Below the pieces are notes generated by a model that worked only from the letters and a program-made list of their open reading frames with translations, ran no database searches and was not told the origin of the DNA. This document shows, in pieces, positions 32,869-35,705 of a stretch of 64,000 nucleotides of DNA; position 1 is the stretch's first letter, and the number at the start of each line of letters is the position of its first letter. Source of the DNA: Sminthopsis crassicaudata (Eukaryota); contig NC_133622.1 of assembly GCF_048593235.1 (NCBI RefSeq), forward strand, positions 252,344,055-252,408,054. The letters run 5' to 3'. A program made the translations under genes and the position numbers.

Positions 32869-35705
32869 TAATCTCCCCACAGCAGGTCCCTGAGAGAGGA
32901 TGGGGGTCCAGGCTGGGCTGGGAGCAGTGGCCGGGCCATTGATCTCGGGGACATTTATCACTCAGCTGTTCTGCTCAGGCTTGGTGCTGGCCTGGAGAAA
33001 CAGGGCATCTAGATAAGGCAGTTTCTACACCCCCACAGGCAGTTCTTACCCAGGCCAGGTGTTGGCGCTAGAGAGGACGCTTGTTCTGGGCACAGCAATT
33101 GCTGAGTGACTTTGGACCAGTCACAGCATCTCTGAGCCTCAGGGGCTGCATTTGTAAACTGGGGGGGGGTCAGTTTCTTCCCTGCCAACCCGCACTCGTG
33201 GGGCTGCCAAAAGCCTCCCAGGAGCCAAGGGATGAGAAACCTCTCTGTGGAACGCCGGCAGACGTGGGCTAGAAGAGCTGGCAAGGCCTTTAGTTCAGTC
33301 CAGTTCAACCTCGTTTCACAGATGAGGAAACTGAGATGACTAAGGCCCCCAGGTGGGGGAGGGAGTGACAGCCTAGGAGCCCATACCCCACTCTCAGCTC
33401 TTCCCATCCCACGGAGCAGGCGGCCCCTTCCCTGACTACAGTGACGGGCATGAAGGGCACCTGGGGGCGGGAGCTAGCGAGTGGGCATGAGTGGAGGAGC
33501 CAGAGGCTTTGGGAACTTTCTCTGACCTCTCTCTTTGCAGGATCGGGAACTGGGCCCCGAGGAGCTGGATGGTGAGCTGCTGTGGAAACTGAGGCAGGGA
33601 GGGGGGAGGGACCTTGTGGAGCTGGGAACAGAGAAATGAGCAGGGGCTGGCCGGTCCTGGTGTTGGTGTAGATGGATGGTGGGGGCCAGTAGGGCCACAG
33701 GGGATCTGCATCTGTGATGGGGGGAGAGGGTGCTGAGTTCTGACCTTCCTTTCTCCCCCATCATGCCCTTGGGCCCGGATAGAGCTGTTCCAGGCCTTCA
33801 ACGAATTCGACACGGACCAGGATGGCTACATCAGCTACCGGGAGCTGGGGGCCTGCATGCGGACGCTGGGCTACATGCCCACCGAGATGGAGCTCATCGA
33901 GATCTCCCAGCATGTCAAGATGAAAAGTCAGTGTCCGAGACCCTGGGCGTGGGGCGGGGGTCACGTGCCCAGTATGATTGTTAGTGTGTGTGTGTGAGTG
34001 TGATTGTGTATGTGAGTGTGTATGAGTGTGAGTAGGTGTTAGGATTACTAAGTGAGAACTCGGGTTGTCTTAGAGGAAGAAAAGAATGGGCGTGGGATAA
34101 TGCAAGGGCTTCTGGGAAGAACCACCTCAGCCAATGAGCCTGCTCCTTCCATCAAGTCAACCTGAGTTCTCACCTTGTAATTGTCCAACCTGAATTCTCA
34201 CCTTGTCACTATCCAGACAACCCGAGTTCTCACTTAGTAATCCTAACAAGTAGGAGTTGGGGGGGGGGGGCAGAAGTCTCCTGGTGGCCATATTGGAGCA
34301 GAATCTTGAAGGATGCTTGGAAAACCAAGCAGGTGAGGAGGGGGTGCAGCATGGCATCGATGGGCAAAGGCTCTGAGGTGGGAGGTGGGGAAGAGCAAGG
34401 AAGCCTGTCATTGGGTGTTTGGAGGGTTTAAAAACCAAGCGAAGGGTTCTGGATCCGCTCTCGGTGGGACTTTTTGATAGGTAGTTGGCCCAACCCTGGG
34501 CCAACCCGGGGTTCTGTCCTAGACTCCGTGGAGGCCGAGGAGGCCGGCCAGTGAGATAAGGGGGAGGAAGGCCCCTGGCGGGTCTTTGGGAGTCTCCAGG
34601 GAGGTCAGCTTTCCCCAAAGACCTGGCCAAGAGGCACCGAGGAATGGCCAGAGAGGGAGGAGGACGGGGGTCCCAGAGAAGCCCCCCCAGTATGAAGGGC
34701 TGCAGAGGGACCCACAGAGAGAGACGGGGACAGAGCCACCGAGTCCGGCCATTGCAGGGACTGGAGGGAGGGCGGCTGGCACCCCGGAGTGAGACTGTGG
34801 GGTCTACGCGGGCTGTAGCAGGAGCAGTCAGGGCAAAGCCCCTCCCAGGTTTGCAAATGCAAGGGAGGCTCTAAGGGAGCGGGCAGGGGAGCCGAGGCCC
34901 GGCCAGGGTGAGGGCTCCGGGCAGACGCGCTCTGGGCACAGAGCTCCCAGGCCGCCCGCTAACGCTCCCCGGGCTCCGCAGTGGGCGGCTGCGTGGACTT
35001 CGAAGAATTTGTGGAGATGATGGCGCCCAAGCTCCGGGAGGAGACGGCCCACATGCTGGGCATCCGGGAGCTCCGCATCGCTTTCCGAGAGGTAGGGAGA
35101 GCGGTGTGAGTGTGAGAGCGGGAGTGTGTGTGTGAGTGTGTGTGAGTGTGAGAGAGGGAGTGGCCAGCCCTTTCCCTGGGGGCGGGGCAGGGGCTGAGCC
35201 CTTTCCCTGGGGGCGGGGCAGGGGCTGAGCCCTTTCCCTGGGGGCGGGGCAGGGGGCTGAGCCCTTTCCCTGGGGGCGGGGCAGGGGGGCTGAGCCCTTA
35301 ACCTGGGGGCGGGGCAGGGGGCTGAGTGAGCCCTTTTCTCAGGGGGCCTGAGGGGCAGGCGTCTGAGCCCCTCTCCCCGGCTCTCCCGCAGTTCGATGCC
35401 GACAGGGACGGCCGGATCACGGTGGCCGAGCTGCGCACTGCCGCCCCGGCCCTGCTCGGGGAGCCCCTGGTGGGACCTGAGCTGGAGGAGATCCTTCGCG
35501 AGGTCGATCTCAACGGAGACGGCCACGTGGACTTTGACGGTGAGACTGAAGTGCGCACGTGGCCCGGGCCCCGTCCCACTCGCCCCCCCCCACGGGGGCA
35601 CTCCCAGGACTCCCCGCTGCTCCCCCCTTTCCCCCCTCCCCCCCGCCCAGACATTCATCGGCTTCCCCCTCCCCAGAGTTCGTGATGATGCTGTCAGCAC
35701 CTTAA
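32201..35705 (+). CDS. CABP4: Calcium-binding protein 4, 287 aa
   Basis: Exons 32201-32602, 33541-33571, 33783-33926, 34982-35091, 35392-35539, 35677-35705 sum to 864 nt, in frame. Long basic N-terminal exon ending PLLNTVFGK, then [13 protein letters not shown]-hands [24 protein letters not shown] and [12 protein letters not shown], with a degenerate EF2. Confidence 0.95.
32790..32865. repeat. (CT)n-like plus (CA)n microsatellite in CABP4 intron 1
   Basis: About 20 uninterrupted CA units after a CT-rich stretch. Confidence 0.95.
34037..34248. mobile_element. 212-bp inserted element with TG...CA ends, perfect 34-bp terminal inverted repeats and a 6-bp TSD (LTR-like/foldback)
   Basis: 34037-34070 is the exact reverse complement of 34215-34248. 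AGTAGG flanks both sides (34031-34036 and 34249-34254). It contains internal direct repeats, a CCAAT box and a GC box. Confidence 0.85.
35165..35330 (+). repeat. About 31-bp G-rich VNTR, 5 copies, in CABP4 intron 4
   Basis: GCCCTTTCCCTGGGGGCGGGGCAGGGG(G)CTGA repeated. Confidence 0.9.

Follow-up and report, generated by a model that had tools for sequence, protein, structure and literature searches.

A 212-bp insert within the CABP4 gene of the marsupial Sminthopsis crassicaudata, found in a 64,000-nucleotide stretch of genomic DNA (the window, to which all coordinates without a locus or contig label refer), is real, is not a MITE and is without demonstrated function at this locus. We read it, with a probability of roughly one half, as a single-copy ERV fragment in which two incomplete plus-strand cDNAs were joined 3'-to-3' by microhomology, the resulting duplex then being integrated. 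That two U3 ends were inserted by integrase to give a dead by-product is very probable; that the arms were already joined before integration is close to an even bet. The two-U3 build is a frequent copying accident and not a new mobile element.

The insert spans positions 34037–34248 and runs from U3(1–34) through a gag patch to inverted U3(166–1) (Table 1), so ordered that inverted arms of 34 nt each (34037–34070 and 34215–34248) stand at its ends with 100% complementarity. The original prediction of perfect 34-bp inverted ends between two copies of AGTAGG was borne out, as were three diverged direct repeats spaced 28 and 32 bp apart, a CCAAT box at 34131, a GC box at 34088 and the lack of TATA and AATAAA; the two boxes presumably have promoter-type roles in U3. 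AATAAA is found on neither strand of the insert, from which TATA, R, the U5 end, the PBS and the PPT are all absent, and the long arm breaks off 8 nt short of where an ordinary LTR has its AATAAA(A) box (nt 174). Because TATA, R, U5, PBS and PPT are missing, the insert is likely dead, that is, unable to be copied again. It holds only U3 1–166 and 1–34, and not the complete U3-R-U5 between target-site duplications (TSDs) of a solo LTR; nor does it have the two direct LTRs, PBS and PPT of a TRIM or other non-autonomous LTR element. This structure is not due to chance, given the perfect 34-bp inverted repeat, the 6-bp duplication (alone 1 in 4096) and arms that are exact pieces of the end of an LTR with 6,275 copies.

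Table 1. Features of the insert and of its host intron, in window coordinates.
Feature	Positions	Strand	Remark
Host intron (GT...AG), CABP4	33927–34981	+	Gene name from match of next exon
Left target-site duplication, AGTAGG	34031–34036	+	Read from sequence
Short arm, U3 nt 1–34 of ERV LTR, integrase-type TG end	34037–34070	+	
Gag (matrix region), 18-bp exact match, same sense as short arm	34068–34085	+	
Long arm, U3 nt 1–166	34083–34248	-	100% identity to 39 other copies
GC/GT box GGGCGTGGG within U3	34088–34096	+	
CCAAT box within U3	34131–34135	+	
Three diverged U3 repeats, 28–32 bp	34151–34241	-	Repeat number polymorphic across family
Right target-site duplication, AGTAGG	34249–34254	+	Read from sequence
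CABP4 exon, 3' of insert	34982–35091	+	Best structure match CaBP4

The insert begins 110 bp past the intron donor, and there are no N bases within ~2 kb of it. CABP4 had been named as the host gene, and the exon that follows the interrupted intron agrees with this in matching CaBP4 best (2m28, E 1.7e-17), with CaBP1 weaker (5.8e-14); from human exon sizes we take the intron to be intron 3. The next CABP4 intron holds, at 35166–35300, a GC-rich tandem repeat with a unit of ~31–33 bp, which follows a GT/GA microsatellite.

When the genome was searched with the insert, 39 other places matched query positions 47–212 at 100%, and the insert itself was the sole match over the full 1–212, among 40 scored of 856 candidates. 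In 29 fetched copies the 166-nt piece proved to be the start of an LTR of ~400–470 bp, with a PPT before 3' LTRs, a PBS after 5' LTRs and TSDs around solo LTRs; the exact 23-nt U3 end of this family occurs 6,275 times genome-wide. The copy examined for domains, 6,273 bp (~6.3 kb) in length (many 3-kb deleted copies also exist), contains Gag_p10, Gag_p24, RVP, RVT_1, RVT_thumb, RNase_H and rve, with zf-CCHC_5 below the cut-off, and the best PDB matches of family proteins are 7sr6 and 7usf/3jca, which we take to be HERV-K RT and MMTV integrase, respectively. No env family was found in the two long frames scanned, and the gap between pol and the 3' LTR measures only ~300 bp. In 39 of 46 provirus pairs the two LTRs show no difference across 360 nt; overall, 19 of 16,560 sites carry a substitution, a divergence of 0.11%. 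Among 87 resolved insertions, 81 have a TSD of 6 bp and the other 6 one of 5 bp. By these sequence features, the parent is a very young, env-less, class II (beta-like) ERV.

The left arm had been described as a foldback of the element's own first 34 bp. An inverted 34-bp copy is indeed there, but the description is incomplete: a gag-derived patch separates the arms, and in the sister cases described below the arms derive from different LTR alleles. The 12 bases between the arms (34071–34082) are not LTR sequence and are unique to the patch. Together with the microhomologies TCT and AGA (3 nt per joint) they make up an exact 18-mer of the family gag, one that is also present in 46 other fetched loci; when 12-mers were shuffled as a control, with the microhomologies left out of account, 1046 of 200000 trials (0.5%) matched the 6.3-kb copy.

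To estimate how often this build arises, we used two samples of insertions, both from contig C1. The first starts from the initial 100 exact U3 ends of C1, which form 66 clusters, or 64 once L046 and L052 are removed as duplicates of L044 and L051. The second takes in all 54 clusters of one allele at C1 72–378 Mb, an anchoring that over-counts discordant arms. U3 stands at both ends, between TSDs of 5–6 bp, in 9 of these 118 insertions (7.6%; Wilson interval 4.1–13.9%), each with its own joint: five of 64 in the first sample (L032, 336 bp; L053, 721 bp; L063, 77 bp; L079, 1723 bp, with a 5-bp TSD; L098, 46 bp) and four of 54 in the second (L150, 403 bp; L162, 452 bp; L163, 1021 bp; L171, 412 bp). 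The remainder comprise 50 ordinary proviruses, 28 solo-type copies and 31 insertions left unclassed by the script, several of which are ordinary copies with an extended LTR. If C1 is typical, the genome holds about 300 two-U3 loci (170–580). Thus it is not the case that all other copies are ordinary LTRs, an outcome that the original prediction had named as fatal to itself; what recurs is the build, arrived at independently each time.

A further U3/U3 case, L014 (560 bp, 6-bp TSD), comes from the first set of 29. Left out of the nine are inverted U3 ends without an exact TSD, namely L033/L027 (GGTGT/GGTAT), L191 and three inverted-end cases of the second sample that have no TSD (L152, L165 and L166, the last together with L196). 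L120 was considered as an inverted-end case and rejected: here a solo LTR, bounded by a TGTCAC duplication of its own, has inserted into an older LTR. The genome-wide pattern search, limited to elements of up to 35 bp, returned six U3/U3 places of 26–35 bp (control, 0), five of them with a 5–6-bp TSD; two of the six look like duplicates and three come from a sister LTR variant. It also returned three U3/U5 minis of 34 bp, all with 6-bp TSDs, and no U5/U5 element of this size. In a sample anchored on U5, made up of 39 clusters taken in order from the 69 left once 10 already-seen positions were dropped, one cluster is a U5/U5 element (L137, 6-bp TSD); L142, fetched out of order, is not counted. 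The excess of U3/U3 over U5/U5 elements is not significant (p 0.45).

The arms of these elements carry information about their source. They lie at least two changes apart, repeat-number indels included, in 3 of 6 U3/U3 cases; among 28 ordinary LTR pairs, 2 are this far apart (p 0.029). Different alleles are seen in the arms of L014, L053, L079, L162 and L163. By sequence comparison, then, the two arms of a U3/U3 element often stem from separate molecules. Of 300 random pairs of elements 32 are identical, and the arms appear to share an allele more often than such pairs do, as co-packaged genomes would. For the 212-bp insert itself two templates are not demonstrated, since its arms are identical over their 34 nt. 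None of the nine U3/U3 elements has kept an arm of provirus length, while among the 78 ordinary insertions that could be resolved 50 remain proviruses (p 2.4e-4). Breaks concentrate at U3 nt 30–36 and 166–173, a pattern noticed post hoc.

What lies between the arms varies: a piece of gag in the 212-bp insert, of the 3' internal region in L033 and of pol in L171, and LTR patches in L032 and L063. L033 and L171 repeat the plan of the 212-bp insert, a U3 stub (30 and 32 nt, respectively) followed by an internal patch. L163 consists of two LTR+PBS arms whose joint falls at a self-complementary primer site. In L150, U3 arms of 173 and 173 nt flank a piece of 18S rRNA (L150:324–380; matched to Rfam RF01960 with E 3.6e-7, a score under the gathering threshold) within a TGTGTG duplication. 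L053 is built of a complete LTR, then ~250 bp from another chromosome (C5), then inverted U3; its filler has a single C5 source locus at 98% (next best 78%), with 16 nt of homology at the return joint. In the U5/U5 element L137 (L137:3801–5243), ~650 bp of satellite directly abuts an intact U3 end; no exact source of this satellite filler was found (best match 88%). Snap-back patches that resemble those of host end joining are present in L063 and L137.

In outline the insert resembles MITEs and foldback elements, which are short and non-coding and have terminal inverted repeats and a TSD. The original prediction contained two parts, of which one stood: an LTR-derived element with two U3-type ends was integrated as one piece by integrase of class II. 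The other part, a possible MITE-like parasite of the retroviral integrase, would, like a mini-element moved by a DNA transposase, suit the small size, the perfect terminal inverted repeats and the TSD, but is scarcely credible. What tells against it is the single-copy junction: its 21-mer is present one time only in the 3.24-Gb genome, so that the many dispersed copies of a MITE are missing, and the junctions of two further U3/U3 elements are likewise single-copy, making three unique junctions out of three tested. The other scored copies match the ordinary U3 part only, and with no second full-length match among the 40 scored of 856 a MITE family is ruled out. The ends, moreover, are not those of an autonomous DNA transposon with transposase terminal inverted repeats; they are retroviral U3 att sites, the U3 start of a gag/pol LTR family, and the insert, lacking TATA, R, PBS and PPT, has no means of remobilisation. 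Retroviral integrase is not known to excise. An assembly artefact, in the form of a collapsed or folded-back read, is also highly improbable: the TSD is perfect, the flanks are unique, and there are many independent cases each with its own TSD. Sampled words of 33600–34700 are present at 0.82–0.94 in public DNA data sets of two samples, shares that describe the region and not the junction, one sample being perhaps the assembly source and the gap between 0.82 and 0.94 carrying no weight. It is unlikely, too, that a provirus or solo LTR had its U5 end replaced later by an inverted U3 through template switching in replication. The original prediction had named such switching in a solo LTR as its alternative. 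The arms of the 212-bp insert, identical over 34 nt, would be expected on such a rearrangement, and the terminal TGT common to U3 and U5 ends could seed a switch; against this, replication would have to switch template three times and find gag sequence at the site to copy, arms of different alleles (as in the five loci listed above) cannot be produced in this way, and a rate of 7.6% at an LTR divergence of 0.11% implicates insertion itself.

The U3 termini of the 212-bp insert are flush and an exact 6-bp direct duplication lies on both sides, which, on established chemistry, would call for integrase to have worked on a pair of U3 ends. In the scheme that we prefer, PPT-primed plus strands would halt after a short stretch, in this insert at nt 34 and nt 166, near which other cases break too; one plus strand would jump to a gag template and copy 12–15 nt; AGA/TCT annealing to the other plus strand, with mutual extension to the 5' ends, would give two blunt U3 ends; and integrase would trim both and insert them with a 6-bp stagger. 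Joining before integration is favoured by the lack of provirus-length arms (0/9), the PBS joint of L163, the symmetry of L150 and the recurrent breaks, and also by the independent recurrence of the build, the discordant arms and the lower frequency of U5/U5 elements (1 of 39, and none among the ultra-short ones). Against it stand the 34-bp U3/U5 minis with 6-bp TSDs, host DNA flush at intact LTR ends in L053 and L137, the snap-back patches of L063 and L137, the non-significant U3/U3 excess and the existence of a U5/U5 case. Elements of 26–77 bp with perfect TSDs (L189, L190, L098 and L063) would, considering the stiffness of DNA, be too short for both ends to enter one intasome, and so were probably joined or shortened after integration. 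The alternative is that one intasome inserts the U3 ends of two cDNAs in trans with a 6-bp stagger and that host repair joins the inner ends, which would be resected and then closed by microhomology-mediated end joining that adds a templated gag patch, long palindromes collapsing later. We consider this possible, if on the doubtful side. It would account for the like-end minis of 26–46 bp and the 34-bp U3/U5 minis, all with perfect TSDs, for the U5/U5 element with its 6-bp TSD, for the captured C5 and satellite DNA, for discordant arms and for inverted-end cases without a TSD (L152, L165 and L166); in aberrant HIV integrations, host polymerases likewise add viral or host sequence via short homology (PMC5041404). 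Pairing in trans is harder to reconcile with the want of a provirus-length arm in any of the nine, when most resolved ordinary insertions are still proviruses, and the symmetric arms, the rRNA filler and the PBS-centred joint are better explained by reverse-transcription intermediates. Joining before integration, and trans pairing with host repair, may both operate in this family.

Events such as aberrant integration and RT strand-transfer errors are familiar, and it is the frequency of the two-U3 build that is of interest. Like-end integration can be carried out by purified integrase in vitro, and RT 'deletion with insertion' and strand-transfer errors yield by-products of cDNA synthesis with inverted or patched viral sequence. 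In the one-ended aberrant integrations of HIV-1 and ASLV, host enzymes insert one end and the flank is deleted or duplicated (PMC5041404). These share with the 212-bp insert truncated viral DNA and short-homology joints with appended viral (or, in the former, distant host) sequence, but the insert has two intact U3 termini and an exact 6-bp TSD, its aberrant joint lying inside, and neither end shows host joining with a flank deletion or duplication. Autointegration inversion circles are also by-products of cDNA and integration with inverted or patched viral sequence, but they are unintegrated with joints at CA ends, unlike the insert, which was integrated via two U3 ends and has microhomology at its inner joints (PMC7197481). 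Of families known from marsupials, MEBrv 3 is an env-less beta-like ERV amplified in Dasyuridae; gag-pro-pol was found without env, LTRs are identical and the copy number is very high, as here, but its length is ~7.3 kb as against the 6,273 bp of our copy, and the likeness is one of description (PMC11334065). The word 'inverted' is absent from the main text of that paper. KERV-1/MERVK1 solo LTRs, compared by description, are similarly marsupial and recently active, with LTRs of ~400 nt and TSDs of 5–6 nt, but belong to a macropod family and are described as ordinary solo LTRs (PMC5711953). Our literature search, in which coverage of older virology is incomplete and leaves novelty uncertain, turned up no title or abstract that deals with integrated two-U3 ERV elements, let alone frequent ones.

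Proviruses are assumed to insert via the U3 and U5 ends of one cDNA. We tentatively propose, while judging it slightly more apt to be wrong than right, that in this actively amplifying, env-less mammalian ERV ~1/13 of insertions (some 300 loci) enter via the two U3 ends of two different cDNAs. If so, two-U3 integration would be a general side route of retroviral replication that has gone unnoticed. It would run counter to the U3+U5 rule in the germ line, pick up rRNA and host DNA from far away, and scatter through genomes MITE-looking inverted repeats that are annotated as solo LTRs. With hundreds of like-end integrants of natural origin in one genome, trans end pairing by intasomes could be tested directly in vivo, and so could the question of how often plus-strand intermediates recombine with one another or with cellular RNA. 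Such elements also leave hairpins in introns and enhancer stubs that lack a promoter, and an annotator would mistake them for MITEs or solo LTRs.

Several further features of the family were observed. It has two PBS motifs, possibly for tRNA-Lys; the two primer-binding sites lie ~70 nt apart in 57 occurrences (e.g. L006, L011, L021 and L026). Nine solo LTRs (L015, L021, L026, L047, L059, L060, L086, L127 and L157) and some proviruses stop immediately ahead of the second PBS and carry a 6-bp TSD, from which it follows that both primers are used, giving two LTR lengths. Most LTR pairs are identical, but three proviruses with perfect TSDs (L084, L092 and L183) have LTRs that differ by 5–9 changes, possibly through unlike-end joins of two molecules or through gene conversion, and in the provirus L142 an internal stretch of 700 bp, with a U5/PBS copy in it, is inverted. 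The pairs L044/L046, L051/L052 and L193/L194 each show one insertion with the same flanks twice, and are segmental duplications or assembly duplicates. The sister LTR variant represented by L191, L193 and L194, which has a different U3 start, also makes ultra-short U3/U3 elements. The donor site of the C5 filler (L053 and L101; C5:150516354–150516584) is without an LTR in this assembly, and arrays of the L137 satellite, possibly centromeric, lie at C1 454.8–456.4 Mb, C2 352 Mb, C4 299 Mb and C6 129.9 Mb. U3 stubs of 17–92 nt are joined to internal sequence, host DNA or a U5 tip in L037, L069, L087 and L186–L188.
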